A program made the translations under genes and the position numbers. The notes under the pieces are model-generated. The model saw only the letters and a program-made list of their open reading frames with translations. It was not told where the DNA came from and ran no database searches. Positions 3,007 to 19,444 of a stretch of 64,000 nt of DNA are shown here, one piece after another (the stretch's first letter is position 1; the number at the start of each line of letters is the position of its first letter). Source of the DNA: Spirochaetota bacterium (GTDB taxonomy: Bacteria > Spirochaetota > UBA4802 > UBA5550). The stretch lies in NCBI GenBank assembly GCA_963664815.2, contig CAXXHB010000003.1:2880001-2944000 (forward strand), in the 5' to 3' direction.

Positions 3007-4074
3007 TCAGTTTTCAGGTAAACTGAAATAAAAAACTACATATTCACCCTGAACAGAATCAATCCACACTCTGCCCGCATGTTTTTCTATGATTTTTTTA
3101 CAGATATAGAGTCCTAACCCCGAACCTTTAATTCCTTCTGTTCCTTTCTGTTTTAATCTTCCGAATTTTGCGAAAAGCTTTGTTTCAGCATCATCTTTTG
3201 ATATCCCCACACCCTGATTATATATGGAGAAGATTATTTCATGGTCTTTTTCGAAAACAGAGATTTTAACTTCAGTTCCGTTACGTCCATATTTAATAGC
3301 GTTGTTAACAAAATTGGTTACAACTATCTGCAAAAGGTTTGGGTCCCCATGAATTTCAGGATGTATCTGATAATCAGTTACAACTGGCATATTTTTCAGA
3401 TTTGATGAGTATTCGGGTATTTCAAGAACAGGTTTAACTACATCATTAATGAAATCTATTTTCTGATTAAAGGATTCCATGTCATCCAGTTCCATTTTTG
3501 ACAAATCTATATAGCTTCGTATAATATCTTCAAGATACTGACAGTTCCTTATGATTGTTTCCAGTATTTCTTTCTGTTTTGGTTCTATATTGCCAAAGTA
3601 TCCCTTGGCAAGCGTCTGAGCCGTGGTATGAACAACTGCAACAGGGCTTTTAAGTTCATGAGAAACAATTGCCATTAAATCCAGCATATTTGTCTCGCTG
3701 TTTTCACTCGATTTGATTGCGTTATGTATTACATCCCGGAATTCATCCGGTGTAAACGGTTTGGGTATATAATCAAAAGCTCCCATTTTCAATGCTTCCC
3801 GAGCGGTCTCTGCAGTGGCAAATCCCGTAAAAATTACTACTTTAACATCAAGTTTTCTTTCTTTTACTGAACGAAGAACATCAATTCCGCTCATTCCAGG
3901 CATCATCAGGTCTGTAATAATCAAATCGTATTTTTCCTGATCAACCTTTATAAGGCCATCTTCTCCGGAATAAACAGTCTCTATATGATAATCCTCTCCT
4001 CTGAGAATTCTCAGGCAGCTTTTTAAAACAATATCTTCGTCATCTATTATCAGTATTTTTATCTGCTTATTCAT
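3007..4074 (-). CDS. Cytoplasmic hybrid histidine kinase (REC-HisKA-HATPase_c)
   Basis: REC: LIIDDE, ITDLMMP, FTG, KPF. H-box VSHELKSP, N-box NFVNNAIKY, G2 KGSGLGLY. Confidence 0.92.
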   Translation of the reverse strand: MNKQIKILIIDDEDIVLKSCLRILRGEDYHIETVYSGEDGLIKVDQEKYDLIITDLMMPGMSGIDVLRSVKERKLDVKVVIFTGFATAETAREALKMGAFDYIPKPFTPDEFRDVIHNAIKSSENSETNMLDLMAIVSHELKSPVAVVHTTAQTLAKGYFGNIEPKQKEILETIIRNCQYLEDIIRSYIDLSKMELDDMESFNQKIDFINDVVKPVLEIPEYSSNLKNMPVVTDYQIHPEIHGDPNLLQIVVTNFVNNAIKYGRNGTEVKISVFEKDHEIIFSIYNQGVGISKDDAETKLFAKFGRLKQKGTEGIKGSGLGLYICKKIIEKHAGRVWIDSVQGEYVVFYFSLPEN

Positions 4075-4178: not shown

Positions 4179-4218
4179 TGATTGATAAAATGATACCAAA
4201 GTATCATTTTATCAATCA
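4179..4218. terminator. Perfect 18-bp inverted repeat downstream of hydrogenase operon (probable terminator/RNA hairpin)
   Basis: tgattgataaaatgatac-caaa-gtatcattttatcaatca, ending about 20 nt past the stop of 4238..4645. Confidence 0.5.
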
Positions 4219-4237: not shown

Positions 4238-4645
4238 CTATACAAATTTTTTTATCTTTTCAATAAGCTCATCAATATCCACAGGCTTAGTGAGAAAATC
4301 GCTTATATTTGGTAAAAAACTCTGTTCCGCATTAAGAGAAAAACGGGAATTAGTTACCTGATCAATAGCGGTAAGCATTATTATAGGAATGTCTTTAACT
4401 ACCGCATACTTTGATCCTTCTCTTTTACTGCGAATCTGATAGACAGCTTCAAAACCGGCCGTATCTGTTTCCATCATAACGTCAAAGACAACAAGATCAG
4501 GCTTGTCAGAAAGTACTTTTTTCAATCCCTCTGTACCGCTAAATGCTTCAATAACATCAAGATTATTCATTTTAAGCGCCTGCGCCAGAGTAGCGACAAG
4601 ATCTTTATCGTCATCAACAAGAAGTATTTTTTTCGACATAGTCAC
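4238..4645 (-). CDS. Single-domain response regulator (REC)
   Basis: LLVDDD, VFDVMM (phospho-Asp), MLT, TKP. Strong RBS gaggagga. Lies 6 nt after the hydrogenase small-subunit gene. Confidence 0.92.
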   Translation of the reverse strand: MTMSKKILLVDDDKDLVATLAQALKMNNLDVIEAFSGTEGLKKVLSDKPDLVVFDVMMETDTAGFEAVYQIRSKREGSKYAVVKDIPIIMLTAIDQVTNSRFSLNAEQSFLPNISDFLTKPVDIDELIEKIKKFV

Positions 4646-4651
4646 TCCTCC

Positions 4652-5182
4652 TCAATTATCCAGCATTTTATAAATGACGTTTCTGTTTTCCCATGCTTTA
4701 TTCCTTTCGTAAACATCTATCGGGAATTCCATCTGCTTAAGCTCAACAGGCGCAACCTGTTTATCAACAAGTCCAAGCGCAAGAGCAACACCATATATTA
4801 TAGCTTCCGGTCTTGGAGGACATCCCGGGATGAAATAGTTTACAGGAACAACACCAGTCGCTCCACCGGTAACATTATAAGTATCAAACCAGCAGCCGCC
4901 GCCTGTTGCACATGAACCTATTCCGAAAACAAGCTTCGGATTAGGGAGAGCATCATAAGCTTTCTTTACCAGGGGAAGCGTCGGTCTTGTAACCGCCCCG
5001 GAAAGAAGCATAACATCCGCATGTCTGGGAGAAGCAACAAGCTTCATCCCGAACCTTTCAACGTCATAATAAGGAGTAAGGACGTTGAGTATCTCTATAT
5101 CACAGCCATTACACGCGCCTGTATTACAGTGGTAAATCCATAATGACTTGCCGAATATTTTCTTTGAAAGATTCGTAAACAT
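4652..5182 (-). CDS. Group 4 [NiFe]-hydrogenase small subunit (HycG/NuoB-like)
   Basis: GACNGCDIE, YDVERFG, SPRHAD, GSCATGG, PGCPPRPE. Confidence 0.93.
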   Translation of the reverse strand: MFTNLSKKIFGKSLWIYHCNTGACNGCDIEILNVLTPYYDVERFGMKLVASPRHADVMLLSGAVTRPTLPLVKKAYDALPNPKLVFGIGSCATGGGCWFDTYNVTGGATGVVPVNYFIPGCPPRPEAIIYGVALALGLVDKQVAPVELKQMEFPIDVYERNKAWENRNVIYKMLDN

Positions 5183-5184
5183 AC

Positions 5185-5730
5185 CTATTCTCCTAATTTC
5201 GCAGGTCTTTTATAGTTTGCAGTTTTCTTCAGCATCTCTGTATCGAAATGATCAGTTGTCTGTCTTATTAATGCCCGCGCTTCGATGTTATCATATCTGT
5301 ATCCGAAAAGATCCAGTCTGTCTATCATATTCTTATTTTCCATATCGTAACATCTTCCACATCTCTGGCATGTAAGCATAAAGAGTTCCATGCTTTCAGT
5401 CAAATCCTGTTTATCTCCTGTTGCTGTTTCAAACTTGTCAGTCATAGTTATAGCTTTTTCAGGACAAACATCGGCACATCTTCCGCAGTATGTACATCTC
5501 GATGCATCATAAACCATCAGCCTTATTTCCTGACATATGTCCCGCACTAATATTGTTCTGGCAGGGCAATGATTCGCACACCCTCCGCAACCGATACACT
5601 TTTCATGATCCCAGTATGGCATTCCCCGGAAATTTTCAGGTACAGGAACTTTTTCAAACGGATAGTTCAGAGTAACCACGCCCGGCTTCATTACCATTAA
5701 GACCTGTTTTATTTTACTTGTGAGCCACAT
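5185..5730 (-). CDS. 2x[4Fe-4S] ferredoxin-like subunit (HycF/NuoI-like)
   Basis: TLNYPFE..PENFRGMP, CIGCGGCANHCP, CTYCGRCADVCP, and an extra CQRCGRC. Confidence 0.92.
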   Translation of the reverse strand: MWLTSKIKQVLMVMKPGVVTLNYPFEKVPVPENFRGMPYWDHEKCIGCGGCANHCPARTILVRDICQEIRLMVYDASRCTYCGRCADVCPEKAITMTDKFETATGDKQDLTESMELFMLTCQRCGRCYDMENKNMIDRLDLFGYRYDNIEARALIRQTTDHFDTEMLKKTANYKRPAKLGE

Positions 5731-5747
5731 AGTTTTCCTCCTTCTCC

Positions 5748-6647
5748 TTATATCCCGTACACTGATAAGCCTACAGCAACCAATGCTACAATTATAAGTG
5801 AAACATAATATTTCACAGCCTGGTCAATCCTGAGCCTCGGATTCGTCGAACCTATCAGAGCAATAAATACATAGACGCACGCTATTTCCATAAGCTGTAT
5901 AACTAAATCCAGAGCGTAAATCCCTGTATAAAGAAACGGTATGAAAACAAGGACAAATAACGCCGCATAAAACATCTGTTTCAACATCATTGAATATTTA
6001 AAAAGCGCATAGTTGGGGCCGCTATATTCAATAAATGGCCCTTCAAGTATTTCCTGTTCCGCCTCTGCTATATCAAAAGGCAACTTACCGACAAAAGCCT
6101 GTAAAGCCATCAGGTAGAGTACCAGCATAATTACTACTGCCCAGCTATAACCGTTATTCATTACGCTGAAAATAACATCATCAATACCAAGACTCTTTAC
6201 CTTTACAGCGCCGACAAAAAATGTCATCGCCAGAACAGGTTCCACAAGAATCATAGTAATCATCTCCCTGCTCGCACCCATCAGAGCAAATGTATTCTTG
6301 CTCGCTAACGCTCCGATAAGAATTGATACTCCTCCGAGAACAAGAAGATAAATTATTGTTATAACATCCCCGTATCCCGTCATGAAATTTGCCTTATATC
6401 CAAGCGGAATAAAACAAATTACCGTGAGAACTGCTGCGAAAGACATCATTGGAGCAATTTTGAAAGCCCAGTTACCGACATTAAAATTTTCTTTTCCCAG
6501 AAGCTTGATTATATCGTAGTAGGGCTGAATTACCGGCGGACCCATCCTCGACTGAACCTTTGCCGTGATTTTTCTTACAATACCCTCAAACAGAGGTGCA
6601 AGAGCAAGGAATATAACAAGGTTGATCAAAACATATACTATATCCAT
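5748..6647 (-). CDS. Membrane subunit HycD/HyfC/NuoH-like
   Basis: RKITAKVQSRMGPP..QPYYDIIKL, GASRE, KLPFDIAEAEQEILEGPFIEYSG, PRLRIDQ. Multiple TM helices. Confidence 0.93.
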   Translation of the reverse strand: MDIVYVLINLVIFLALAPLFEGIVRKITAKVQSRMGPPVIQPYYDIIKLLGKENFNVGNWAFKIAPMMSFAAVLTVICFIPLGYKANFMTGYGDVITIIYLLVLGGVSILIGALASKNTFALMGASREMITMILVEPVLAMTFFVGAVKVKSLGIDDVIFSVMNNGYSWAVVIMLVLYLMALQAFVGKLPFDIAEAEQEILEGPFIEYSGPNYALFKYSMMLKQMFYAALFVLVFIPFLYTGIYALDLVIQLMEIACVYVFIALIGSTNPRLRIDQAVKYYVSLIIVALVAVGLSVYGI

Positions 6648-6659
6648 AATTCACTCCCC

Positions 6660-8330
6660 TCACTTATTACCGCGTGATATAAATTCTAATTCAGACTTTG
6701 TCATTAATCTGTTATTGCCGGATCCTACATTTATCACCTCTACTCTATCCGTACATGAAAAGCAGGGGTCGATGCTCCCTACAATAATCGGGAAGTCCGC
6801 AAACTGATTATTAAGCAGCATAGCTGGTATTGCCTGAAGATTCGGATATGTGGGGGCACGCACTCTCCACCTGTCGGGACGATTTTCCTCTCCAGTAATT
6901 ACGAAATGCACAGATTCACCCCTGGGAGCCTCGACTACAGAAATTCCCTGTTTAAGAGCAGGAATGGCTGCATCAAGTTCAGTTAGTATTGGTCCCGCTG
7001 GCATTTTATCAAGTATCTGACGCATAATGCTGATTGATTCGTATATCTCAAGTATTCTCACCAGAACAGTTCCCCAGACATCGCATGTGTCAACTACAGG
7101 AACATCAAACTTCAGTTCGCTGTATGCTGCATACGGGTGATCTCTTCTTGCGTCGATATCAACTCCCCTTGCCCTGGCAACCGGACCGACGAGGCTCCAC
7201 CTGATCGTTTCCTCTTTTGTTATACAGCCGACTCCTTTTGTTCTTTTATGTATCGCAGTGTCGCCTATAATTGATTTATGTATAACTCTTGTTTCCTCTT
7301 CTACTTTTTTAATCACATTGAGAATGTCAGCTGACAACTCTGCCGTTACATCACGTCTTACACCTCCGACAATGACCATACCGTAAGTTTTTCTGTTCCC
7401 GGTCATTCTTTCACTTAGCCACATCAGCTGTTCACGAACTCTCCATGCCTGCATAAATACAGTATCAAAACCGATAAGATGCCCTGCTACACCCAGCCAA
7501 AGCAGATGTGAATGGAGTCTTTCCAGTTCAAGTACAAGGCTTCGCAGGTATTTTGCCCTTTCAGGAACGGTTATTCCCGCAGCCATTTCCACCGACTGAG
7601 AGTATGCTGTGGCGTGCACTGAACCGCATATACCACAAATTCTTTCTGCGATAAATGGTATTTCGTTATAGCTTACCTGGCTTTCACAAAGTTTCTCAAT
7701 ACCACGGTGAGTCATAAATCCTCTGTAATCACAACCTTTTATCGTTTCACCGTCTACATATACTGCAAATAATGCAGGTTCATGAAGAGCGGTATGAAAC
7801 GGACCTACTGGCACCATAGATGTTCCTTCAGGACATTCATCAAGCTGATATGCAACGTCTTCCGCAGAGGGTGGAACCATGTTATATGGCACTTCCTTCC
7901 TCAGAGGAAACACGTCTGATGGCCAGTCGTCTGCTACAATAAGCTTTTTCGGTTTTGGATGTCCGGTAAATTTCATTCCGAGCAGATCCATATACTCACG
8001 CTCAGACCATCCTGCTCCCGGAATATCAGGAGTAATTGAGTCCATCACCGGATTATTCCCCGGCACAGCAGCCCTCAGAAGCAGAATAAAGTTGTCCCTG
8101 TCGAATCCGAAAGTATGCACAAGGCCTATATTACCATCACGTGCTATCTTGTCGTAACCTATACTTACAAGATATCTTCCGCCAAGTGCAACTATCTCGT
8201 TGGACACGTCTCTGACTTTATCAGTTTTAATATCTATAAACAATCTTGTGGCAACAGGAGATTCACTGTTTACAATACTGCTGCCGAATTTATCTTTTAG
8301 CGTCTTTAATACTCTTTCCAATGAGTTCAT
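6660..8330 (-). CDS. Group 4 [NiFe]-hydrogenase large subunit (HycE-like NuoC-NuoD fusion)
   Basis: NuoC-like WSEREYMDLLGMKFTGHP. HRGIEK. L1 motif ERICGICGSVH and L2 motif DPCFSCTDR supply all four Ni/Fe Cys, followed by a C-terminal extension for proteolytic maturation. Confidence 0.95.
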   Translation of the reverse strand: MNSLERVLKTLKDKFGSSIVNSESPVATRLFIDIKTDKVRDVSNEIVALGGRYLVSIGYDKIARDGNIGLVHTFGFDRDNFILLLRAAVPGNNPVMDSITPDIPGAGWSEREYMDLLGMKFTGHPKPKKLIVADDWPSDVFPLRKEVPYNMVPPSAEDVAYQLDECPEGTSMVPVGPFHTALHEPALFAVYVDGETIKGCDYRGFMTHRGIEKLCESQVSYNEIPFIAERICGICGSVHATAYSQSVEMAAGITVPERAKYLRSLVLELERLHSHLLWLGVAGHLIGFDTVFMQAWRVREQLMWLSERMTGNRKTYGMVIVGGVRRDVTAELSADILNVIKKVEEETRVIHKSIIGDTAIHKRTKGVGCITKEETIRWSLVGPVARARGVDIDARRDHPYAAYSELKFDVPVVDTCDVWGTVLVRILEIYESISIMRQILDKMPAGPILTELDAAIPALKQGISVVEAPRGESVHFVITGEENRPDRWRVRAPTYPNLQAIPAMLLNNQFADFPIIVGSIDPCFSCTDRVEVINVGSGNNRLMTKSELEFISRGNK

Positions 8331-8364
8331 AACTTTCCTCTCACCTTTAGTTTAGGAACCAACA

Positions 8365-10236
8365 CTACTTTACGTTCCCGCCTGTCCACCACATGAAATG
8401 CTTGAATGCATGATACATGCTGCTCGCCTTATACCTTGTCGTTTCATTCAATTCCTGGTATCCGCACATCCATACAGGAGCAGTCCTTTCAACGGATCCT
8501 GCAGATTTTTTAAACAGATACGCAATTACGAATGCTATGGCAAATACTGCAAGCAACATGGCCGGAACTGCTATTGAAGAAACACTTATGCCTGCGCCGG
8601 GCAGATTAATCTGCACGCCCATTGCCGACTCAACTATAGAATTGTTAACCTGCATCCCCCTGAATAAATTCGTGACAATAGAATGTCCTGAATTTTTAAA
8701 TATGCTGATTATTGTCTCGAAATACAGGAATGGGAGCAATCCCTGAATAATACAAAGAGCTGCCAGTATGAATTTCGGAAAAAGCATCAATACAGGAACT
8801 TCCTTCACTTCCTTTTTTGTATTCCACTCGTGTCCGGTTGATGTGAATGTCATTCCAAAAAATTTCACGTACGAAGCCAGTGTTATTGCGCTTGTCATCA
8901 GCGCTATTATTCCGAATATAACAAGAAATCCTACTTCAGTTCCACCCAGAATATCAGCAGAAATAATAGACCACTTGCTCATAAACCCGCTGAATGCAGG
9001 AATACCGGCTATAGAGAACGCTGCAATCCCGGCTATAACAGTTGTGGCAGGCATGAACTTGATAAGTCCACCCAGTTTATTCAAATCTTTTAAACCTGTT
9101 GCATACTGGACACTACCGGTTGAAAGGAACAGAAGACCTTTAAAAACCGTATGGTTAAGAGTATGATAAATCGCTCCTATCATAGCGATAGCAGCTAAAA
9201 CCTGCAGGAACGGATTAGGGCAGCTCAGCATAAAAAGTGCGCTTCCTATTCCAAGCACTATATAACCCATCTGACCGATTGAATGGTAAGCATGAAGTCT
9301 CTTTGCATCATGCTGTTTTAAAGCCTGTGTAGTTCCTATGAAAAGTGAAACAACACCGAATGTCGCAACAAGTGCTCCCCAGAATTTTCCGTTAAATACA
9401 AAACCGTTTCCTTCCGGAACAATCCAGAAAAGGGTTCTGATAATTCCATAGACACCTGTCTTAATCATAACGCCTGAAAGCAACGCACTTATAGGTGACG
9501 GCGCAACAGAGTGGGCATCCGGAAGCCAGAGTTGCCCGAATGGGAACACACCAGACTTTAATCCGAAACCGACAAGCAGCAATCCATATACCACATATAC
9601 ATGAGCTCCTCTCACAACACTGAATTTTTCTGTAATATGACCAATTGAGTCTCCCATTGTCACGCCGGGTATAAGCATTGTTCCGCCAATTATTAAGAGC
9701 CATGCCAGTTCCATAAGTATAAGATACTTATTGGCGCTCCTTACAACGCCCTTTTCCCTTGATTCAAACCTTATCAGAAAGTATGATGCTATTGTCATAA
9801 GCTGCCATGCAATAGTGAAGCCGATTGAAAGGTCATCAACAGTAAGCAGGACAATCATACCCAGTACAAATATCGGGAGATTAAAATAAAACCCTCTCAG
9901 ACTGTAATCATGATAGTGTTCCATATATTCTATTGAATATAATGAACTTATCACAGCCATAAAGGATACAATGGCTACAAAGAATGCGGAAAAACTATCC
10001 ATAAGGAAATAAATCCCGAATGCCCCAAGAGTAATTATTTTTGACTCCTGCGGAGCAGCTTCAAAAATTACCGCATAACATGTATACAGGAGAAGAATAG
10101 CAGCAGTCGCAACCAGTGCGAAATTTATCCAGCCGGCAAGCTTCCTTTTTGTTCCCGCTACTATGGGGGAAACAACTGCTGAAGCTAAAAGTATAGCCAT
10201 GGCCGTCATTAAGTTTCCGTAAATATCGATATTCAT
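8365..10236 (-). CDS. Antiporter-like membrane subunit (HycC/HyfB/NuoL-MrpD family)
   Basis: 623 aa polytopic protein with GFGLKSGVFP..WLPDAHSVAPSPISALLSGVMIKTGVYG, AYHSIGQMGY, NHTVFKGLLF, GIPAFSGFMSKW and C-terminal PVWMCG. Confidence 0.92.
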   Translation of the reverse strand: MNIDIYGNLMTAMAILLASAVVSPIVAGTKRKLAGWINFALVATAAILLLYTCYAVIFEAAPQESKIITLGAFGIYFLMDSFSAFFVAIVSFMAVISSLYSIEYMEHYHDYSLRGFYFNLPIFVLGMIVLLTVDDLSIGFTIAWQLMTIASYFLIRFESREKGVVRSANKYLILMELAWLLIIGGTMLIPGVTMGDSIGHITEKFSVVRGAHVYVVYGLLLVGFGLKSGVFPFGQLWLPDAHSVAPSPISALLSGVMIKTGVYGIIRTLFWIVPEGNGFVFNGKFWGALVATFGVVSLFIGTTQALKQHDAKRLHAYHSIGQMGYIVLGIGSALFMLSCPNPFLQVLAAIAMIGAIYHTLNHTVFKGLLFLSTGSVQYATGLKDLNKLGGLIKFMPATTVIAGIAAFSIAGIPAFSGFMSKWSIISADILGGTEVGFLVIFGIIALMTSAITLASYVKFFGMTFTSTGHEWNTKKEVKEVPVLMLFPKFILAALCIIQGLLPFLYFETIISIFKNSGHSIVTNLFRGMQVNNSIVESAMGVQINLPGAGISVSSIAVPAMLLAVFAIAFVIAYLFKKSAGSVERTAPVWMCGYQELNETTRYKASSMYHAFKHFMWWTGGNVK

Positions 10237-10730
10237 TTACAAACTCCTTTGTTACAATTTAAAGCATCTGTTATTATCTGAATCAGGACATCGGCACTCT
10301 CCCTTACTGCCGGAGAAAGCTCAGCCCCGAAATCTATATTATCAACCACAACTCCGAGCAGATAAGTCTCTTTATTATGCTCGTTAAATATTTTGCCTGA
10401 CATCTTCAGAGCGAGTTTATGAGTTGAAAGTGTCCCCGAAAGTTCCTCAAACTCATCATCAAGCTTGCCGAAAAGAATAGAGCCTGTTTCCGCATCAGCC
10501 TTAACTGCATCAATAACCACAATGCTTTTACAGGGAAGCTCTGCAAGTTTATAAACATACGCTTCAATAACATCCTCGACGTTAAAAATCATATGCCCGT
10601 TACCAGCAGCCCTTCTTACAGACTCGATGATAAAGAGACCAACAGCGTCATCGCTTTTAAGGAGATTCCCCATACCAACGATACAGCAGTTGTCACTTAC
10701 CACATTTTTTATTTCCGACAGAAGATTCAT
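10233..10730 (-). CDS. Hydrogenase maturation endopeptidase (HycI-like)
   Basis: VGMGNLLKSDDAVG, VIDAV, STHKL. 4-nt overlap with the next gene. Confidence 0.9.
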   Translation of the reverse strand: MNLLSEIKNVVSDNCCIVGMGNLLKSDDAVGLFIIESVRRAAGNGHMIFNVEDVIEAYVYKLAELPCKSIVVIDAVKADAETGSILFGKLDDEFEELSGTLSTHKLALKMSGKIFNEHNKETYLLGVVVDNIDFGAELSPAVRESADVLIQIITDALNCNKGVCK

Positions 10731-10732
10731 AT

Positions 10733-11581
10733 TTATATCACTTCCCCAAGTGTTTTTATCTGTTTATATGTATAAACGGGACCATCGGTACAAACAAGAG
10801 TTCTCCCTATGGCGCAATGCTGGCACTTTCCAATACCGCATTTCATATGCCTTTCAAGAGTTGAGAGAATACAATCATCCTTAAGGCCTCTTTTCATCAG
10901 CTCACCGATTACAGAATTGAACATCACCGGAGGACCACATACAAATGCTACAGTGTTCTCCACAGGTACTTTCGCTTTTTCTATAAGATTATGAACATAC
11001 CCTGTCTCTCCAGTCCATCCAGCTTCTGCCTGGTCAACCGTTACATAACATTCAAAACCGGGAATTTTAAGCCATTCTTCTATATTATACTGATACATCA
11101 GATCTTTAGGAGTTCTCGCTCCGAGGAGAACTATTATTCTTCCGAAATCATCTCTGTGTTTGAGAGCGTGTAAAATCGATGACCTCAGCGGAATCAGACC
11201 GATACCACCAGCTACATATATAAGGTTCTTTCCTTTTAGTTCCGTAAAAGGAAAACCATTACCAAAAGGTCCCCTGATCCCTACTTTATCTCCCGGCTGA
11301 AGTTCAAACAGTGCTCCGGTTACCTTTCCGACTTTTTTAATCGAAAGGTGAAACCTGTCCCCTTCAGGGCATGTTGGCAGAGAAAAAGCCGCTTCACCTG
11401 ATCCGAAAATACTCAGCATAACTATCTGACCCGATTTCCATTTGAAATTCTTCTCAATTTCAGGATTATCAAATTTGATATAGAACGTTCTTACATCCTG
11501 AATCTCATCCTTAATTTCCTCGATGGTTGCTATTTCCGGTATTGTTACTATTTTATTATCCATTTCGCTCATGGCTATCAC
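10733..11581 (-). CDS. FAD/NAD(P)-binding FNR-type subunit with [2Fe-2S] (AsrB/HydG/FlxA family)
   Basis: RGPFGNGFP, AGGIGLIPLRS, VCGPPVM, ERHMKCGIGKCQHC...VCTDGP. Confidence 0.92.
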   Translation of the reverse strand: MIAMSEMDNKIVTIPEIATIEEIKDEIQDVRTFYIKFDNPEIEKNFKWKSGQIVMLSIFGSGEAAFSLPTCPEGDRFHLSIKKVGKVTGALFELQPGDKVGIRGPFGNGFPFTELKGKNLIYVAGGIGLIPLRSSILHALKHRDDFGRIIVLLGARTPKDLMYQYNIEEWLKIPGFECYVTVDQAEAGWTGETGYVHNLIEKAKVPVENTVAFVCGPPVMFNSVIGELMKRGLKDDCILSTLERHMKCGIGKCQHCAIGRTLVCTDGPVYTYKQIKTLGEVI

Positions 11582-12637
11582 CTACTCTATAATTTCCCGT
11601 CTGATGTATGTAACAACATTCGGCAGACCTATATCGCCGGGGCATACCCACTGGCATCTTCCGCATCCTACACATCCCGGCCTCATATACTTCTTTGACT
11701 GTGAATATGAAAGCTTGCAGAAAAATCTCTTGTTTCTTCTGTCTTCAACGGGATGCCGGGGATTATGGTCACCAGCCATTTTTGTATATCCTTCGAACGA
11801 GCAGGAGTCCCACGTCCTCAACCTGTCAGTTGAACCATTGAAATTATTATGGTCTTCAATATTGAAACATGAACAGGTTGGGCATACGAATGTACATGCA
11901 CCACATTCAAAACACTGTTTACCTATATACTCCCAGACTTCCTCTTTAATAAAACCAGTTGTAACCCTGTTCATAACACGTGATATCCACGCTTTGTTAT
12001 CTGTCGCAACCAGTTCAAAAAGCGATATGGATTTATCAACTGCTTTGCCTTTAGCGTCAGAGTGTTCATTCCCCGCTTTTTTAAGCCCCATTTTTTCAGC
12101 GAACGCACGCCCTTTTTCACTGCCAGCCTCAACAAGATAAACATCGCCAAGATCAGTAAGGTTGAGATCATACCCCTCTTCAGCTGACGGGCCGCTGTCA
12201 GTACATACACAAAAGCACTGTTTGAATGGGACAGTACATGTATTTGTTACAATAAACATTCTCTTTCTATGTTCGAGGTAAACTTCATCAACAAATTCCT
12301 GTCCCATAAAAAATCTATCAAGGACTATTATACCTGAAAGATCACATGGACGAAGTCCGAACAATGCTTTGCTCGAAGTATCAAAATCAGGAATCATATC
12401 AACTTTTTTTGCGCCCCTATCATACTTATACTCAAGTATCCTTTCAATCTGGGGAAACACCACATTTTTAGGGGGTATAGAAGGTATTTCGGCCGAAAGG
12501 CTAATCTCAGACGCATCTGCGACCTTATTAAAAAAGACCTGCTTAGAGTCCTTATCCACTATCGGGCCGTAAAGAGAATAGCTCTTTGCAAGCTCTTCGG
12601 CCAGCTTCATTACATTACTTTTTTCTATCAAATACAT
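11582..12637 (-). CDS. 4Fe-4S dicluster subunit (AsrA/HydB/FlxB-D family)
   Basis: RPCDL, CTVPFKQCFC, CFECGACTFVCPTCSCF, RTWDSC, CVGCGRCQWVCP. Confidence 0.92.
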   Translation of the reverse strand: MYLIEKSNVMKLAEELAKSYSLYGPIVDKDSKQVFFNKVADASEISLSAEIPSIPPKNVVFPQIERILEYKYDRGAKKVDMIPDFDTSSKALFGLRPCDLSGIIVLDRFFMGQEFVDEVYLEHRKRMFIVTNTCTVPFKQCFCVCTDSGPSAEEGYDLNLTDLGDVYLVEAGSEKGRAFAEKMGLKKAGNEHSDAKGKAVDKSISLFELVATDNKAWISRVMNRVTTGFIKEEVWEYIGKQCFECGACTFVCPTCSCFNIEDHNNFNGSTDRLRTWDSCSFEGYTKMAGDHNPRHPVEDRRNKRFFCKLSYSQSKKYMRPGCVGCGRCQWVCPGDIGLPNVVTYIRREIIE

Positions 12638-12639
12638 AA

Positions 12640-14646
12640 TTATATCCTCTCTATCCTGATTGGAATAATTGCGTCTTCTCCCTTATCAAAATCTTTATTA
12701 TGCTCAAGAAGGAATGAGGAGATCATCTCTCTTATAAAGTAAGGTACATATGCAGTTCCGGCCTTCACATCTTCAGATATTTTAACCGTGACATTCATTG
12801 ATCCGTGAGAAGAGGCTATTTTAACATTCCAATGTTCTCTCACCTGAAGCTTTGCCGCATCTTCTTTGCAGATTTCTATATATCCCATGGGATATACAAG
12901 AAGAGTTGCGTTATATTCCCTTTTAGGAATATAGGTTTTCTTCATCACATTATTCTGATGCCAGAAATGCTGCCCCTGTCCGGTGATGAGAAGTATCGGA
13001 TAATCTCCACCCGCTGCAGGAACTGCATAATTTCCTGTTACCGGAGCGAATTTAAATTTTTTACCACCAGCTGCCGCATCCAGTCTTTTGCATCCCTGCG
13101 GATACTTGTCATTGCATGGCCACTGCAACCCCAGTGATTTTTCAATTTTATCATAGGTCATGCCTGAATATGATGGTGTGAGTGAAGTTATTTCTTTAAA
13201 TACATCTTCAGCTGATGAGTATTTCCATGAAAGCGAAGCCTTAGCTGCAATCATCGGGAAAAGCTGCCATCCTGTCAGTACCTTCTGAAAAGGTTCAACT
13301 CTCTTTCGTGAAAGCTGCACTCTTCTTTCAGTATTAGTATAAGTTCCATCATCCTCAATAATACCGGCAACAGGTATAACTACATCGGCATATTTAACAA
13401 AAGGATTTTCGAATGTCCCGATATAAGCTACAAATTCCAGTGCTTCAATCTCTTTCGAGTATTTAACAATACCTTCGTCGTGGTCAGCCACAACAAGACA
13501 TTTTAGTTTTGAATTTCTGTCTGCCAGCAGCTTATAAACATCATTGCCGGCTTCTTTATTTAGCTTTACACCCCAGTTTTTTTCAAACTTCGCAACAGCA
13601 TCTGCATCGGAAAGTTTCTGAAAACCGGTAAGGATATCAGGAGCGGTTCCCATATCATATCCACCCTGAATGTTGCATATACCGGTTATTGGATTTGCAC
13701 CACAGTTTTCTTTCCCCATTTTTCCGGCAACAAGCAGAAGGTCATATATGTAGCTTACTGTGTCCTGATCAAGACCCGAAATTCCGGTGGACCAGAATGC
13801 CATTACTGACTTAGCTTTGCATATCTCTCCTGCAGTTTTTACTATCACATCGGATTCTATCCCCGTGAGAGAAGAAACATTATTCATATCAAGGTTACTT
13901 ACAGCAGTGGAAAATGCGTCAAATCCCTCTGCCGATTTATCCGCTAGCCCTTCAGCAATAATTGCCTTTGCCAGTGCTGCAAGAATGACTTTTTTTGATC
14001 CGGGCCTTATCTGCAGATGTATATTGCTGAGCTTCGCGATCTGAGAAGAAATGCTGCTGATAGTCACTACTTTTGTACCAGACATCTGGGCCTTATGGAT
14101 CTCACTTCCGATAATAGGATTCATTTTCGTAATATCAGACCCTACAACAAGTATAAATTCCGTCTTTGAAATATCCTCCAGGGATCCTGTCATCCCGGGA
14201 AATCCGGCACCGTCGTTCAGCACATTTATGCTGCCCCTGTGGCCCGATTCTGAATCAAGTGTAATATTATTTGTTTTAAATACACTCTTTGCCAGTTTTG
14301 AGAACAGATAATTATTTTCATTAGATGATCTTGGCGAAGCAAGAAATGCTATCTCTTCTGTAGATTTAGCACTGTACTTTGACATCTTTTCCATCATGAA
14401 ATTAATCGCTTCCTCGTAGCTGACATTTTTAAAATTGCCGTCTACTTTTATCATGGGTGAACTTATTCTCTGATCTGTCATAAGCAGTTCATGAAAATGC
14501 CATCCCCTGACACATAGCCTGCCTTTGCTTACCGGGTGGTTTCTTGACGAATAAACTCCGCAAACTTTACCATCTTTAATGTTGAGGTAGTTGCCGCATC
14601 CGGTTCCGCAGAAATTACATACTCCAGACTTATAATCCATATCCAA
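12640..14646 (-). CDS. FdhF/FdhA-like molybdopterin-oxidoreductase-family protein, apparently lacking catalytic residues (NuoG C-terminal-like)
   Basis: N-terminal CNFCGTGC...LCVRG [4Fe-4S] motif, SNENNY, GTYTNTERRVQ, GLQWPC and a C-terminal molydopterin-binding domain. Ligand loop reads NNITLDSESGH (no Cys/Sec). RBS gagg. Confidence 0.88.
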   Translation of the reverse strand: MDMDYKSGVCNFCGTGCGNYLNIKDGKVCGVYSSRNHPVSKGRLCVRGWHFHELLMTDQRISSPMIKVDGNFKNVSYEEAINFMMEKMSKYSAKSTEEIAFLASPRSSNENNYLFSKLAKSVFKTNNITLDSESGHRGSINVLNDGAGFPGMTGSLEDISKTEFILVVGSDITKMNPIIGSEIHKAQMSGTKVVTISSISSQIAKLSNIHLQIRPGSKKVILAALAKAIIAEGLADKSAEGFDAFSTAVSNLDMNNVSSLTGIESDVIVKTAGEICKAKSVMAFWSTGISGLDQDTVSYIYDLLLVAGKMGKENCGANPITGICNIQGGYDMGTAPDILTGFQKLSDADAVAKFEKNWGVKLNKEAGNDVYKLLADRNSKLKCLVVADHDEGIVKYSKEIEALEFVAYIGTFENPFVKYADVVIPVAGIIEDDGTYTNTERRVQLSRKRVEPFQKVLTGWQLFPMIAAKASLSWKYSSAEDVFKEITSLTPSYSGMTYDKIEKSLGLQWPCNDKYPQGCKRLDAAAGGKKFKFAPVTGNYAVPAAGGDYPILLITGQGQHFWHQNNVMKKTYIPKREYNATLLVYPMGYIEICKEDAAKLQVREHWNVKIASSHGSMNVTVKISEDVKAGTAYVPYFIREMISSFLLEHNKDFDKGEDAIIPIRIERI

Positions 14647-14884
14647 CCTCTAAGCCAGTATTCTTAATTATCTACATGACATCATAATTACTTCTAATTG
14701 TAACTATATGCCATATACAATATCCAACCATTAGACCACTGATTTTCTTTGAATAACCGTTGCTGAAACTCATTTCCATTCCGGCCGTAGGAAATAATAT
14801 AGCTAAGCAGTTATACATTAAAAATTTTATTTGAATATAGACTTAAATAAAATGAAAGTCAATGGGGAGATAATCTTTTTAAGG

Positions 14885-14908
14885 AGTGGGGGAATTCCCC
14901 TACTTTTT
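14885..14908. terminator. GC-rich hairpin at end of LuxR-fusion kinase gene
   Basis: agtggggg-gaatt-cccctact followed by ttttt, adjoining the stop of 14908..17796. Confidence 0.45.
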
Positions 14909-17796
14909 TATGAGGTTTTTTCAAGAATATACTGAACGGCAAACTGAATTAATTCTGAAGATGAATCTATATTCAGCTTGCTCTTTATCTTTTCACGGTA
15001 ATTTTCTACTGTTTTCACACTGATACGAAGCTTATCTGCGATGTTTTTGTTTCCAAGACCATGGCCAATCAGCTGGAATACCTCAAACTCCCTGTCTGTC
15101 AGAGAGTCAACCAATACGGAATTTTCATCTCTGCGCGGGGATGAAAGCTTATCAAGCAGTTTTTCCTTGAGGCTGTCGCTCATGTACTGCCTGCCTTCAA
15201 GAACTATTCTCACTGCATTTATAATTATACCGGGATGTTCATTCTTCATAACAAATCCTCTGGCACCTGCACGAATTGCCCTTTCGGCATATAATGATTC
15301 ATCATATATTGATATTACAAGTATAGGAATCTCCGGATATCTCTCCCTGCAGGCTTTGATCAGGTCTATCCCGTTAGTGCCGCTTAAAGAAATATCAACT
15401 GTCAGTATGTCCGGTTTAACTCTCCCCAGAGCTTTTAGTGCATCATCTGCCGTGCCGGCTTCCCCGATAATAAAGAGATCCTTCTCCATTTCAATAATCT
15501 GCTTCAATCCATGTCGCACTATCGGATGGGCATCTACAAGAAATACACCCGATCTGGTTTTATCCGGATTCTTTTTAAGGAACCTGACCCTTTTTGTATT
15601 CTCTATCTTTAAAGGTTCACCTGTAATTCTTAAGCGGCATGACAGGCTTAACCCACCTCCGGGATTACCCTTTACTTCTACCGTTGCTCCAATAAGCCAT
15701 GATCTGTACCTTACAAGGCTCAGAAAAAGATTATTCCTGTCTTTATCTATTTTTTCAAAATCTTTCCCATCGTCCCTGATTTCAATAATATATACATTAT
15801 GATCTTTTGAGGCATTAATTAAAATATTCTCCGCTTCATTATTTTCAATTGAGTTGAGTATAGATTCTTTAATTATGTAATAAAGATTTGAATTTTCAAG
15901 CTTACCGTTTATAATAATTGATTCGTCCCACTTTACGAGTATATTGACGTTTGACGTTCCACGTACACTCTCTTTAAGGTTCTCTACTGCAGCGTGTAGA
16001 CCGCCCGGACTTATATCAACAGGGCTAAGCTCTTTTGCAATCTCCCTTGTTTTGCTTACAGCACGGTCCACAAGATCTATTATTTCATCGATCTCGGGAA
16101 TGGTATCCGGCACGGAATCTCCGAACTTCACTTTAAGCAGTTCAGCTTTAAATATTATACCGGCAAGATGCTGAGCCAGTCTGTCGTGAAGGTCCTGACC
16201 TATTTTAAGCCTTTCTGCAGCATTTGTTTCCATCACCACTTTTTCCAGACGTTTTCTTTCAGTTATATCTATTCCTACAAAGAAAATAAAATCGACATCT
16301 CCATCCATCCGTATAAGCGGTTTTCCATGCCATTCCACAAGTATTATATCACCATCTTTTGCAATTATCGGATATTCAGAAACGGTCGCTTTTTTTCTCT
16401 CAACCATGTTTTTAAAATCTTTTCTGATTATATCCCGGTCAGCCTGATTAAACAGAAGTTCAATATAATCTCTCCCGACAACCTCTCCAAGAGTGTAGTC
16501 AAGAGCGATCAGCATTGCCCGGTTCATGGTTAGTATGTTGCCGGACGAATCAAGCGCTATATAAAAAGAGGGATTAATATCTTCCAGGCTCTTGAGGAAA
16601 TCTTTCCCTTTCCGGATGGTTTCCTTAGCACGCAATTCAGCAGTAACATCCCTCTCTATAATTGAGGCTCCTATGATATTTCCGGTTGAATCGTATACAG
16701 GGGAGATATTCATTGAAAGATAAATCTGTTTCCCGATTGAGGTCATGCCGACTGTTTCATAATGATTGATCTTTCCACCCTGCTTTACTCTCTCAAGAAG
16801 GAGCGGAAAATAATCCGGCTGATACGGAGGTATCAGCAGAGAATACGAACACCCATTAATCTCATCGAAGGAATACCCGAAAATCCTTTCTGCACTGCTA
16901 TTCCAGCTTACAATCAGGCTGTCGAATGTAACTCCGATTATTGCGTCTTCTGAATCCTCCAGAAGCGATGAAAGCTTTTTACGCAGCTCATCTATATTCC
17001 TTTTCTCCATCACATCATGGAAAACACTGAGTATTGCATAATCATTGTTATATTCCACAAGCCTGCTGCTGACCTCGACAGGAACAATTTCACCTTCCGC
17101 GTTCCTTATTGAAGTTTCAATCCTTTTTCCATCCCTTGTCAGGTCGCTCATAATACTTGATGATATATCAGTAAGCGAATGATAGTTGAAAAGATTCAGA
17201 ACCGAGAAACCAACCACTTCCTCTTCTTTTAAACCAAGGTATTCAAGCCCGCTGAAATTAATCTCAAGCACTATTCCTTCAAGATCATGAATTACAACAA
17301 TATCAATAATGCTGTTGAACAGCAATTTGTAATTGTTTTCAGTTCTGTTCAGGGTTTGAGTTCTTTCTACAAGAATATTTTCCAGTTGCTGGTTTTTTTT
17401 ACGGAGTTTATCTTCGGATGTCTTAATCCGGAGCATTGCCTTCACCTGTGCGGCCAGTTCAATTTCATCAATTGGTTTTGTCAGAAACGCATCCGCACCG
17501 GATTCAAGCCCCTCCGCCCTTTTAGCAGAAGTAGTGTCCGAAGCCGTAAGTAAAATCAATGGTATCCCTTTGGTCTCCTCATCAGATTTGAGAAGCCTGC
17601 ATGCTTCAACACCATTAATTCCCGGCATTACATAATCAATTATAAGAAGGTCAGGCTTTTCACATTTTACATTCGATACGCATTCCATTGCAGATGTGAG
17701 TGTAACAATATCAGCATCCCTGAAAAATCTGTTTAACAGCGCTTTAAGCGTAATGAGGTTATCCCTGCTGTCATCTATAGCTAATATCTTGAACAT
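14908..17796 (-). CDS. Multidomain signalling protein REC-PAS-PAS-PAS-HisKA_3-(degenerate HATPase)-REC-LuxR HTH
   Basis: N-terminal REC (AIDD, IIDYVMP, TKP) and three PAS/PAC repeats. HisKA_3 ERLKIGQDLHD. Second REC (LVDAHPIVRHGL, TVDISL) and LuxR HTH LTDREFEVFQLIGHG...ISVKTVENYREKIKSKL. Confidence 0.88.
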   Translation of the reverse strand: MFKILAIDDSRDNLITLKALLNRFFRDADIVTLTSAMECVSNVKCEKPDLLIIDYVMPGINGVEACRLLKSDEETKGIPLILLTASDTTSAKRAEGLESGADAFLTKPIDEIELAAQVKAMLRIKTSEDKLRKKNQQLENILVERTQTLNRTENNYKLLFNSIIDIVVIHDLEGIVLEINFSGLEYLGLKEEEVVGFSVLNLFNYHSLTDISSSIMSDLTRDGKRIETSIRNAEGEIVPVEVSSRLVEYNNDYAILSVFHDVMEKRNIDELRKKLSSLLEDSEDAIIGVTFDSLIVSWNSSAERIFGYSFDEINGCSYSLLIPPYQPDYFPLLLERVKQGGKINHYETVGMTSIGKQIYLSMNISPVYDSTGNIIGASIIERDVTAELRAKETIRKGKDFLKSLEDINPSFYIALDSSGNILTMNRAMLIALDYTLGEVVGRDYIELLFNQADRDIIRKDFKNMVERKKATVSEYPIIAKDGDIILVEWHGKPLIRMDGDVDFIFFVGIDITERKRLEKVVMETNAAERLKIGQDLHDRLAQHLAGIIFKAELLKVKFGDSVPDTIPEIDEIIDLVDRAVSKTREIAKELSPVDISPGGLHAAVENLKESVRGTSNVNILVKWDESIIINGKLENSNLYYIIKESILNSIENNEAENILINASKDHNVYIIEIRDDGKDFEKIDKDRNNLFLSLVRYRSWLIGATVEVKGNPGGGLSLSCRLRITGEPLKIENTKRVRFLKKNPDKTRSGVFLVDAHPIVRHGLKQIIEMEKDLFIIGEAGTADDALKALGRVKPDILTVDISLSGTNGIDLIKACRERYPEIPILVISIYDESLYAERAIRAGARGFVMKNEHPGIIINAVRIVLEGRQYMSDSLKEKLLDKLSSPRRDENSVLVDSLTDREFEVFQLIGHGLGNKNIADKLRISVKTVENYREKIKSKLNIDSSSELIQFAVQYILEKTS

Positions 17797-17800
17797 TTTC

Positions 17801-18940
17801 TTATTTAATCCATTTACTGATTATCTGAATGAAAGCCCCTATATTGAATGGCTTACGGATAACATCGTTAAATCCGGATCTTACCAGCTTTTCCCTGTCA
17901 TTTGCAATATCAAGCGCAGTAAAAGCTATAACAGGTATATCATCTTTAACAAAAAGATTTTTAATATTTCTTACAAGAGAAAGCCCGCTGATATCGGGTA
18001 GAGTCAGATCAAGAAGTATTATATCCGGCTTTATCTTCTCCAGCAGATCAAGTCCTCTTCCTCCATTTTCAGCATGATACACTTTTCCAAGTCCTTTAAA
18101 CTCATGTTCAATAATTGCATTAACAGGTATTATATTATCTATATCATCATCTATTACAAGCATTATAAACTCCCTGCCTACACGATGATTGAAATCTTCA
18201 GCCATTTCTCCTTCATCACTGTTTTTAATATTATTCTGCTTGCAGGGAATAGAAAATGAAACAATCACATCTCCTTTACAACCGATAGAGAAAAGAGCTT
18301 CGCCATTCAGATGACCCGCACAGATTGAAGCAAACTCCAGCCATAAAACTGAACTTGCACTGTAACCCTTTTCAATAATTTTGTATTTGTCAAATACCAT
18401 CAGATCATTTATTGAATCATCAGATTTATTTAAAGATGCTGTTAATAGTAAATTCGAAGAATGCGATATTGTTTTAAAATAAATTAAAGGAATATCATCC
18501 CCTGAGGAAAGAAAAAATAAACATATATTTTCAAGCATCCTGCATAATACATCTTTCTCCGGAATAAAAAATGATGATCCAAAATCTATATCGCTGACCA
18601 GAGAGCATCGGGTGTTGCGAACAATTGGAAGAATTGACAATAAAGAATTATCCAGTATTTCCCTTAATTCATCATGTGATTCTACATTCTGTTTTTCATT
18701 CTGATTGGATTTCTTTGAATAAGACAGATTATCGATAAAGGAGAGTTCCTCCATTATATATAAAATCTTTTTACCGTTTCTTTCAATAACTTCAAGATAT
18801 GAATTTTCATCATCTGTAAAACTGTTCCCGGAACCTCTTAAAAGGATGCCGGACAGATTAATTACAGGATTGAGTGAATTTTTAATTTCATGAGTTACTG
18901 ATGAGAAGAGCTCTCTATTCTTTGAATAATTTTTTTCCAC
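17801..18940 (-). CDS. HisKA-(degenerate HATPase)-REC protein
   Basis: H-box SVTHEIKNSLNPV with no recognisable G boxes. C-terminal REC has VIDDD, LLDLTLP, FTA, KPF. GTG start. Confidence 0.8.
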   Translation of the reverse strand: MEKNYSKNRELFSSVTHEIKNSLNPVINLSGILLRGSGNSFTDDENSYLEVIERNGKKILYIMEELSFIDNLSYSKKSNQNEKQNVESHDELREILDNSLLSILPIVRNTRCSLVSDIDFGSSFFIPEKDVLCRMLENICLFFLSSGDDIPLIYFKTISHSSNLLLTASLNKSDDSINDLMVFDKYKIIEKGYSASSVLWLEFASICAGHLNGEALFSIGCKGDVIVSFSIPCKQNNIKNSDEGEMAEDFNHRVGREFIMLVIDDDIDNIIPVNAIIEHEFKGLGKVYHAENGGRGLDLLEKIKPDIILLDLTLPDISGLSLVRNIKNLFVKDDIPVIAFTALDIANDREKLVRSGFNDVIRKPFNIGAFIQIISKWIK

Positions 18941-18954
18941 AGATCAGCCGGTTA

Positions 18955-19443: not shown

Positions 19444-19444
19444 A

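Follow-up and report, generated by a model that had tools for sequence, protein, structure and literature searches.

A group 4 [NiFe]-hydrogenase operon with a predicted NAD(P)H module, a degenerate formate dehydrogenase and a receiver gene, conserved in Spirochaetota and other phyla

A 64,000-nucleotide (nt) stretch of the genome of a Spirochaetota bacterium (assembly GCA_963664815.2, contig CAXXHB010000003.1, positions 2,880,001-2,944,000 of the forward strand; hereafter, the window) carries a compact gene cluster for a predicted membrane-bound group 4 [NiFe]-hydrogenase. The same cluster encodes AsrA- and AsrB-like proteins that probably form an NAD(P)H module, a formate dehydrogenase (FDH)-like protein without the FDH catalytic residues, which we call FdhL, and a small receiver protein. 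An earlier inspection of the window, referred to here as the sequence-only reading, had put the cluster forward as an unrecognised, candidate new energy-converting complex. It is indeed a minimal variant, but the architecture to which it belongs had already been noted in silico (PMC6349859, PMC13582414). We find that the window holds a minimal, ferredoxin-less and receiver-linked version of that architecture, which is real and widespread, and for which the idea of an NAD(P)H-based mechanism is reasonable.

Layout of the operon

Genes in the window were named from Pfam and NCBIfam profile matches to the translations of open reading frames (ORFs). Nine compact ORFs lie on the minus strand, from FdhL to hycG, separated by gaps of 2, 0, 2, -4, 34, 12, 17 and 2 nt. 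The genes, coordinates and order given by the sequence-only reading agree with the ORF list and the profiles, and its spacing of -4 to about 35 nt agrees with the computed range of -4 to 34 nt. FdhL (12640..14646; 668 residues from a TTG codon) is a molybdopterin-fold protein with molybdopterin oxidoreductase and Fe4S4 domains. Translation is more likely to begin two codons later, at an ATG (14640), giving 666 residues, which is also the length of the database copy of the protein (P0001). Next come an AsrA/HydB-like poly-Fe-S subunit (11582..12637, 351 residues; Fer4_22, PF17179), an AsrB/HydG-like FAD/NAD(P)-binding subunit with a 2Fe-2S motif (10733..11581, 282 residues; PF00970, PF00175 and PF10418, the DHODB 2Fe-2S domain) and a HycI-type maturation endopeptidase (10233..10730, 165 residues), which scores 83 bits with TIGR00072, over the cut-off, and 78 bits with TIGR00142 (hycI), under it. 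The hydrogenase genes follow. They encode an antiporter-like, HyfB/HycC-like membrane subunit (8365..10236, 623 residues; Proton_antipo_M, PF00361; top match hydrogenase 4 subunit B), a HycE-type [NiFe] large subunit with fused NuoC and NuoD parts (6660..8330, 556 residues; Complex1_30kDa, 49kDa and the N-terminus of NiFeSe_Hases), the NuoH-like membrane subunit HycD (5748..6647, 299 residues; NADHdh, PF00146), the NuoI-like subunit HycF with two [4Fe-4S] sites (5185..5730, 181 residues; two Fer4 matches) and the NuoB-like small subunit HycG (4652..5182, 176 residues; Oxidored_q6, PF01058).

The nine-gene set stands as first described, but a tenth conserved gene had been overlooked: 6 nt after hycG, on the same strand, lies the gene of a single-domain receiver protein of 135 residues (4238..4645; Pfam Response_reg). 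Directly 3' of it is a terminator-like hairpin with an 18-pair stem and a T-rich tail (4179..4218, minus strand), which is a match of consensus type only. At the other end, FdhL is preceded by a gap of 261 nt, whose best promoter-like site on the minus strand is TTGACT-17-TATATT (14834..14862), a match to consensus only, at 10 of 12 positions. Because the receiver gene sits so close to hycG, the hairpin comes after it and the promoter-like site precedes FdhL, the ten genes from FdhL through the receiver are most likely a single transcription unit, as predicted from these signals.

The operon is sparing in its membrane arm and electron carriers. It has one PF00361 protein, consistent with the single antiporter-like gene reported earlier. 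The claimed absence of a HycB-type ferredoxin wire likewise stands, as there is no such ORF and gaps of at most 34 nt leave no space for one. No family match to a HycB/HyfA-type four-cluster ferredoxin was found among the nine products, with E. coli HycB and HyfA themselves queried only against related loci. Within 4238-14646 the ORF list and Pfam gave no HyfE-like ORF and no separate ferredoxin ORF; they likewise gave no AsrC/siroheme gene in the operon, and Pfam gave no NuoE or NuoF gene there.

Conservation of the linkage across phyla

A word-indexed search with FdhL returned 446 matches, the best 120 of which are all at least 48% identical to it. Among these 120, the named matches are called 'molybdopterin-dependent oxidoreductase', 'formate dehydrogenase major subunit', 'YjgC' or 'hypothetical', and they come mostly from Spirochaetota metagenome-assembled genomes. 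To follow synteny, one genome per species was scanned, which yielded 80 FdhL loci in which the ten window proteins were compared by tblastn; 58 of these extend at least 10.5 kb past the FdhL start and are long enough to judge. All nine genes, with the receiver after hycG, are present in 53 of the 58. The order is that of the window in 51 of the complete loci, and in the other two (L038 and L047) both membrane genes stand ahead of FdhL.

The exceptions are mild. In L053 and L062 every gene is present and the large subunit is split over frames; the breaks (L053 16350-17923; L062 14735-17762, where HycF is also broken) may be assembly indels or decay. In the two Aminicenantes loci (L066 and L076) only HycI is missing, with no match between AsrB and the antiporter-like gene, and these genomes may carry the protease at another site. 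In the last exception, L073, the cluster goes no further than a partial antiporter-like gene. Among the 22 shorter loci, 19 are an uninterrupted prefix of the window order, two (L039 and L042) are of the rearranged type, and in one (L028) AsrA was missed.

Depositors labelled the source genomes as Spirochaetota or 'Leptospirales', as Aminicenantes, Acidobacteriota or Saccharicenans, as 'delta proteobacterium' or Thermodesulfobacteriota, and as 'Eubacteriales'. Within Spirochaetota, an even sample of 401 genomes searched at E <= 1e-150 contained FdhL in 59, and in 51 of the 336 high-quality ones. It is nearly confined to one order (family f1, 30 of 39 genomes; f2, 11 of 11; f3, 7 of 8; f6, 7 of 9; f7, 1 of 1), and at this threshold it was not found in the large families f15 (0 of 75), f19 (0 of 38) and f21 (0 of 50).

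The proteins of the operon differ in how fast they change. Over the 53 complete loci, mean identity to the window protein is 52.9% for FdhL, 55.9% for the antiporter-like subunit and 44.8% for HycI. HycD, the receiver and the remaining redox subunits lie at 66-83%, with AsrA, AsrB and HycF all at 70-72%. FdhL is the least conserved large subunit, with the antiporter-like subunit near it and HycI lower.

These data bear out the proposed linkage of the pseudo-FDH, AsrA and AsrB with the hydrogenase in several phyla. The objection that the three genes do not co-occur with the hydrogenase in other genomes fails, because the trio is kept beside it in 53 of the 58 loci; this pattern supports the view that trio and hydrogenase have been inherited together across phyla.

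The linkage also bears on an alternative, in which the hydrogenase would be a ferredoxin-dependent, Ech/Mbh-like enzyme and the trio either a redox sensor with an accessory or regulatory role, or a soluble enzyme in its own right that shares the operon. Most group 4 enzymes do use ferredoxin. However, a trio fixed beside the hydrogenase genes in several phyla, in overlapping or near-abutting frames, does not fit a chance neighbour well, and the equal conservation of AsrA, AsrB and HycF also argues against it. Furthermore, because HycB is missing, something else must feed HycF. We consider this alternative improbable, even though an Mbh-like role was guessed for a related cluster in the passages of PMC6349859 that describe it.

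A hydrogenase core with intact Ni-Fe motifs

The large subunit of the window carries the Ni-Fe motifs RICGIC and DPCFSCTDR, followed by a C-terminal tail of 27 residues. Related large subunits retain RICGIC in 63 of 63 cases and DPCxSCxxR in 59 of 63, the four misses being three contig ends and the one frameshifted copy (L053), and the tail is 23-33 residues long in the 59. Because both motifs, the tail and a HycI gene are all present, as the sequence-only reading had noted in pointing to four Ni/Fe cysteines and a cleavable tail, the assignment as a true group 4 [NiFe]-hydrogenase is supported by the motifs.

The top solved relative of the large subunit is E. coli HycE (7z0s_E, 411.7 bits), and P. 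furiosus MbhL scores 260.1 bits. Since it is only 37% identical to each of E. coli HycE and HyfG, it appears to form a separate clade whose membrane arm is minimal and Hyc-like. A HydDB label of group 4f/Ehr was considered for the enzyme and rejected; papers apply this label to complexes that lack Ni-Fe ligands or to ordinary Ech-type enzymes.

The remaining NuoB-, NuoI-, NuoH- and NuoL-like subunits are 25-45% identical to their E. coli Hyc/Hyf counterparts. HycG is 45% identical to E. coli HycG, and the antiporter-like subunit is 34% identical to HyfB and 25% to HycC. The family-invariant residues of the latter subunit (K227, K259, H358, H362, K366 and K458) are mostly common to E. coli HycC/HyfB, and we take these lysines and histidines to match the central charged axis of NuoL. 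HycF has extra cysteines, C66, C121, C124 and C127 (CxxCxxC at 121-127), which are invariant in 23 of 23 aligned relatives; E. coli HycF and HyfH carry CxxC...CxxC instead. These cysteines may bind one more Fe-S cluster, the third, on the side of HycF to which the input module would dock.

The organization is close to that of E. coli formate hydrogenlyase-1 (FHL-1; Hyd-3; FdhF-HycBCDEFG; 7z0s/7z0t), with which the window shares a fused NuoC-NuoD subunit with both CxxC motifs and a tail, HycI, HycG, HycF, HycD, one antiporter-like subunit and an attached FdhF-fold protein. Unlike FHL-1, the window has neither HycB nor HycH, its FdhL lacks Sec140 (selenocysteine, Sec) and Arg333, AsrA and AsrB are added, the gene order is C-E-D-F-G instead of C-D-E-F-G, and its large subunit shares only 37% identity with HycE.

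An NAD(P)H module of the soluble hydrogenase kind

Among solved structures AsrA has a single strong relative, namely the beta subunit of P. furiosus sulfhydrogenase 1, also called soluble hydrogenase I (SHI; 9nez_B, 131.6 bits, residues 4-338). The top solved relative of AsrB is the gamma subunit of the same enzyme (9nez_C, 186.4 bits, residues 29-276), well above NqrF and PyrK. The cysteine motifs and the FAD/NAD(P) motifs line up with those of 9nez_B and 9nez_C. AsrA has 17 invariant cysteines in 27 aligned relatives. Of 74 AsrB relatives, 73 retain GGIGxIP and 72 retain CxxGxCxxC.

Neither protein belongs to a named enzyme by its scores. The NCBIfam SHI/SHII equivalogs give 148 bits against a cut-off of 690 for AsrA and 196 against 650 for AsrB. 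Likewise, AsrA and AsrB match the AsrABC sulfite reductase families TIGR02910 (141 bits, cut-off 323) and TIGR02911 (191 bits, cut-off 289), but fall under both cut-offs, and the operon has no AsrC. The pair also differs from that of group 3b SHI in its setting, being found beside membrane-bound group 4 subunits and not beside soluble alpha and delta subunits. Thus AsrA and AsrB are best described as a predicted NAD(P)H module of the SHI beta/gamma diaphorase kind that belongs to neither the SHI nor the Asr enzyme. The NAD(P)H-module type assigned to them in the sequence-only reading is supported by their closeness to the NADPH-oxidising SHI beta/gamma pair.

FdhL has lost the catalytic residues of formate dehydrogenase

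Residues of FdhL were counted in 81 family sequences aligned with E. coli FdhF, and FdhF numbering is used throughout. The [4Fe-4S] ligands Cys8, Cys11, Cys15 and Cys42 are kept in all 81. Sec140, His141 and Arg333, which we take to be catalytic residues of FDH, fare very differently: position 140 is Gly in 79 sequences and Trp in two, with Cys or Sec in none, and position 333 is Thr in 51, Ala in 24, Pro in three, Ser in two and Val in one, with Arg in none. His141 is retained in 69 and is Gln in 12. Two positions ahead of the lost Mo ligand, an acidic residue is present in all 81. Lys44, presumably the bridge between the [4Fe-4S] cluster and the pterin in FDH, is Arg in 81 of 81, and Asn176 is Asp in 81 of 81. 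E. coli NuoG, which holds no pterin, likewise has Arg at position 44 and Asp at 176.

Wider comparisons agree with these losses. A reference set of 38 canonical FDH representatives, with Cys140 and Arg333 present, was drawn from an exhaustive search; of the 79 columns conserved in at least 90% of them, the FdhL family retains 43. The residues lost include H181, G402, D478, R581, H655, N662, D670 and K679, and the loss of G402 goes with a five-residue deletion in the GENP loop. We take R581, H655, N662, D670 and K679 to lie in the cofactor-capping domain. Lys44 is present in 38 of the 38 canonical FDHs, and Arg44 occurs in 11 of 29 other degenerate relatives. A reference of eight very diverse Mo enzymes proved too blunt a test, with FdhL keeping 19 of 32 conserved columns and NuoG 15 of 32. 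The family does have invariant polar motifs of its own, DHDE, WHQNN and REYNA.

By its residues, FdhL is shown not to be a formate dehydrogenase, and it is probably without a pterin cofactor. The description 'cofactor-less' in the sequence-only reading therefore holds for the Mo ligand and the catalytic Arg, but loss of the cofactor itself is likely and not an observation.

The genome also encodes MoaC and seven PF00384 proteins, two with an in-frame TGA, from which it is predicted to make the molybdenum cofactor (Moco). Its two best FDH candidates (L082, G000:C2:568310-569581; L087, G000:C3:687794-689455) have one in-frame TGA each, and the real formate dehydrogenases of the organism probably use selenocysteine. 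Because its real FDHs carry this in-frame TGA, Gly at position 140 is not the usual practice of the organism.

The same residues weigh on the possibility that the complex is a variant formate hydrogenlyase, in which FdhL would oxidise formate, AsrA would replace HycB and AsrB would serve as a side port to NAD(P)+. The fold and best matches of FdhL are those of formate dehydrogenases, the hydrogenase part is nearest E. coli Hyd-3, and canonical Sec-FDH genes occur in other group 4 clusters (L117, L122 and L123). However, in addition to the complete loss of the Sec/Cys ligand and of Arg333, FdhL scores only 433 bits with TIGR01591 (Fdh-alpha) against a cut-off of 666, and the FdhL family forms its own clade apart from canonical FDHs in the tree described below. 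Formate hydrogenlyase function is highly improbable on this evidence and nearly excluded.

A proposed NAD(P)H:H+ oxidoreductase

With these pieces in place, the reading that we prefer, and to which we give about an even chance, is that the complex would be an ion-coupled, reversible NAD(P)H:H+ oxidoreductase with an FDH relic as a NuoG-like scaffold. The HycB ferredoxin wire would be replaced by a beta/gamma-type NAD(P)H diaphorase of the soluble group 3b hydrogenases. Electrons would then pass from NAD(P)H to the FAD and [2Fe-2S] cluster of AsrB, through the [4Fe-4S] clusters of AsrA to HycF and HycG, and on to the Ni-Fe site of HycE, in the reversible net reaction NAD(P)H + H+ <-> NAD(P)+ + H2. 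This turnover would be coupled to the passage of ions through HycD and the one antiporter-like protein. FdhL would be a catalytically dead FDH descendant in which nothing but the [4Fe-4S] cluster is left. Its part would be that of a scaffold or of a dead-end cluster, comparable to the NuoG C-terminal domain with N7, and the small receiver protein would act as a dedicated regulator.

This arrangement resembles complex I, which also combines a nucleotide-oxidising flavoprotein, an Fe-S wire and a degenerate FDH-fold protein with only a [4Fe-4S] cluster, together with NuoB/C/D/I/H homologues and antiporter-like subunits. It differs in that the window flavoprotein is of the PyrK/SHI-gamma type and not NuoF, and in that the large subunit is, by its Ni-Fe cysteines, a predicted hydrogenase in place of a quinone-site protein. 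The parallel with complex I drawn by the sequence-only reading is apt, because FdhL has the two substitutions Arg44 and Asp176 in common with E. coli NuoG. The two proteins nevertheless appear to have decayed independently, because FdhL is much nearer to real FDHs (433 bits, 27% identity) than to NuoG (134 bits, 21% identity).

Several points weigh against our preferred reading. Under standard conditions, making H2 from NAD(P)H is an uphill step. With H2 at 1 bar, it is the direction from H2 to NAD(P)+ that runs downhill, by about 90 mV, and very low H2 makes the reverse feasible. Ion pumping by Hyc-type arms is unsettled. Loss of the cofactor is not forced, because the genome makes Moco. The physiological need for the enzyme is unclear, because three [FeFe]-hydrogenases and group-1-like and group-3-like [NiFe]-hydrogenases are already present. 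The polar motifs peculiar to FdhL, its frequent His141 (69 of 81) and its constant acidic residue (81 of 81) could belong to a new active site. Finally, passages of Takano et al. 2026 (PMC13582414) model the Fe-S network of related clusters with three branches and lean towards a third substrate.

The last two points lead to the main rival, a three-terminal hub in which Fe-S branches would run to the Ni-Fe site, to the flavin for NAD(P)H and to FdhL, the latter holding a modified pterin or another cofactor or docking ferredoxin. A third substrate would then take part, possibly by confurcation or bifurcation. Such a hub was proposed from AlphaFold models of related clusters in passages of PMC13582414. 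Also in line with it are the invariant polar motifs specific to the FdhL family, the conserved acidic residue near the lost ligand, Moco synthesis in the genome and purifying selection on FdhL across at least three phyla. However, the position of Lys44, presumably the link from cluster to pterin, is Arg throughout the family, as in cofactor-free NuoG, and five hallmark residues of the last FdhL domain are gone. Moreover, no subunit resembles a known bifurcating flavoprotein, AsrB being of the PyrK/SHI-gamma type, and sequence change is faster in FdhL than in the receiver and the remaining redox subunits. We judge the hub to be unlikely, though with a substantial chance of being right.

Should the NAD(P)H:H+ oxidoreductase reading be true, many uncultured anaerobes could exchange electrons of pyridine nucleotides and H2 directly at the membrane, without ferredoxin. 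Among them would be one Spirochaetota order together with Aminicenantes and Thermodesulfobacteriota genomes from metagenome-assembled collections, and models of their fermentation balance and syntrophic H2 thresholds would change. The complex would also offer a living counterpart, open to experiment, of the step by which a proton-reducing hydrogenase became an NADH dehydrogenase, and a second, independent decay of an FDH into a NuoG-like scaffold.

Related architectures in the literature

Two published descriptions, both in silico, come close to the window. Matheus Carnevali et al. 2019 (Nat Commun, PMC6349859; preprint 10.1101/328856) call a group 4 cluster of Saganbacteria 'enigmatic' in the passages concerned. 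As described there, the Saganbacteria RX5A cluster likewise has an unclassifiable molybdopterin oxidoreductase with asrA and asrB by group 4 genes, but it includes cooF and Mrp antiporter-like subunits; this comparison is by description only. Takano et al. (Front Microbiol, 3 Sep 2026, PMC13582414) state, in the passages on the group 4b subclade, that about half of the cluster Fdh proteins are without Cys/Sec and that such clusters co-occur with SHI-gamma and SHI-beta homologues, and they suggest a three-way, possibly bifurcating Fe-S network. The combination of an Fdh without a Mo ligand, SHI-beta/gamma homologues and a group 4 hydrogenase is that of the window. Their typical cluster ('group 4b'), as these passages present it, has a HyfE-like subunit and several antiporter and several ferredoxin subunits, unlike the window with its one antiporter-like subunit and neither HyfE nor ferredoxin. 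The conserved receiver gene of the window is unmentioned in these passages, and the figures and supplements might include the window architecture.

In the full-text literature searched, only PMC6349859 (with its preprint) and PMC13582414 bear on the architecture, and their figures or supplements might show the exact gene order. The same search found no biochemical study of the architecture, and passages of PMC5317091, PMC5037454, PMC9431212 and PMC9888536 were of no help on it.

Origin of the module

An exhaustive search with FdhL returned 9879 relatives, of which a handful of 50%-identity clusters make up the family, set off by a gap from 40% to 33% identity. A maximum-likelihood tree of 39 rows was built from sequences of 600-720 residues only and a few loci, with others excluded. 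In it, the FdhL family (9 rows, support 100/100) joins a clade of P0128 and the metagenome contig L111 (100/99), and together they stand apart from 28 canonical and other degenerate FDH-like rows. L111 has the genes in the order FdhL-like, AsrA, AsrB, HycI, antiporter-like, HycE, HycD, HycF and HycG. Its proteins are 26-59% identical to those of the window, and its FdhL-like protein has Tyr140, Thr333, Arg44 and Asp176. Because L111 keeps the same order at an identity of only 26-59%, the architecture appears to be old.

A possible source of the module is seen on another metagenome contig (L113 10001-14191), the only such locus found, where a canonical FDH, its Sec position encoded by an in-frame TGA, is followed by AsrA-like and AsrB-like proteins (30% and 33% identical to those of the window), then by rubrerythrin and YceD, with no hydrogenase. 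This trio may be a soluble formate:NAD(P)+ enzyme from which the module came. A reasonable history, on the present comparisons, is that a soluble FDH-beta/gamma enzyme joined a Hyc-type hydrogenase and that its FDH then decayed. A more far-reaching version, which we offer tentatively and think unlikely in full, is an independent replay of the step that formed complex I. Here an L113-like Sec-FDH with its diaphorase would have been grafted onto a Hyc-type hydrogenase in place of HycB, and the FDH would have decayed to an N7-like scaffold. The product would be a reversible, ion-coupled H2:NAD(P)+ oxidoreductase switched post-translationally by a CheY-like receiver co-inherited in at least three phyla.

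Other metagenome contigs hold a different, FHL-like architecture without AsrA and AsrB. In L122 and L123 a canonical TGA-FDH is embedded among HycG-like, large-subunit, HycD-like, HycF-like and antiporter-like genes; in L117 one stands beside several antiporter-like genes, the only genes matched there. One relative (L110) has a second FDH-like paralogue without Hyc or Asr neighbours.

Other hydrogenases of the genome

In addition to the operon, the genome encodes three [FeFe]-hydrogenases, a group-1-like and a group-3-like [NiFe]-hydrogenase, and HypD. The full-length group-1-like large subunit (L171, G000:C3:2961422-2962831; PF00374, 501 bits) lies about 17 kb past the end of the window, and the group-3-like large subunit is on contig 2 (L172/L173). 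A second group-4-like cluster (L101 4112-11354, at about 2626-2633 kb of G000:C3), outside the window, is preceded by an HTH-PTS-EIIA gene. It contains two or three genes of antiporter-like proteins and one of a NuoH-like protein, together with a fused NuoC-NuoD (505 residues, without any CxxC) and a fused HycF-HycG. From these features it looks like an Ehr-type ligand-less complex.

The receiver gene and its signalling surroundings

The receiver gene follows hycG in all 53 complete loci. Its mean identity to the window protein, 66.6%, is on a par with that of the catalytic subunits, and the gap between hycG and the receiver is -23 to 227 nt in the 58 loci that have both, if one outlier due to ORF calling is set aside. 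An alignment of 47 sequences shows at least 95% conservation of the acidic pocket (D11-13), of the phospho-acceptor D55 and of T92 and K120, as well as of a family-specific stretch at 91-112. We propose that the receiver would be a dedicated regulator, acting through a transcriptional phosphorelay or by binding to the complex. Its conservation hints at direct phospho-control of a respiratory-type complex, which to our knowledge would be unusual.

Two neighbours on the minus strand might take part, their regulatory roles being suggested by their Pfam domains. Upstream lies a hybrid PAS-histidine kinase-receiver-LuxR protein of 962 residues (14908..17796), which has a homologue upstream of FdhL in many Spirochaetota loci and none in the Aminicenantes loci; it possibly regulates the operon. 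Downstream, a receiver-histidine kinase hybrid of 355 residues (3007..4074) is conserved at this place only in the closest relatives and is a possible phospho-partner of the small receiver.

Two further minus-strand ORFs of the window are without a Pfam match, one of 162 residues (18955-19443), placed between two kinase genes upstream of the operon, and one of 739 residues (56437-58656). Two-component genes are unusually dense around the operon (14908-26438 and 41060-44275). This run of signalling genes holds a PAS-kinase-double receiver-LuxR hybrid, a kinase-receiver hybrid, a Cache-HAMP kinase, a GAF kinase, a PAS kinase-receiver, an HDOD protein and a 7TMR-DISM kinase.

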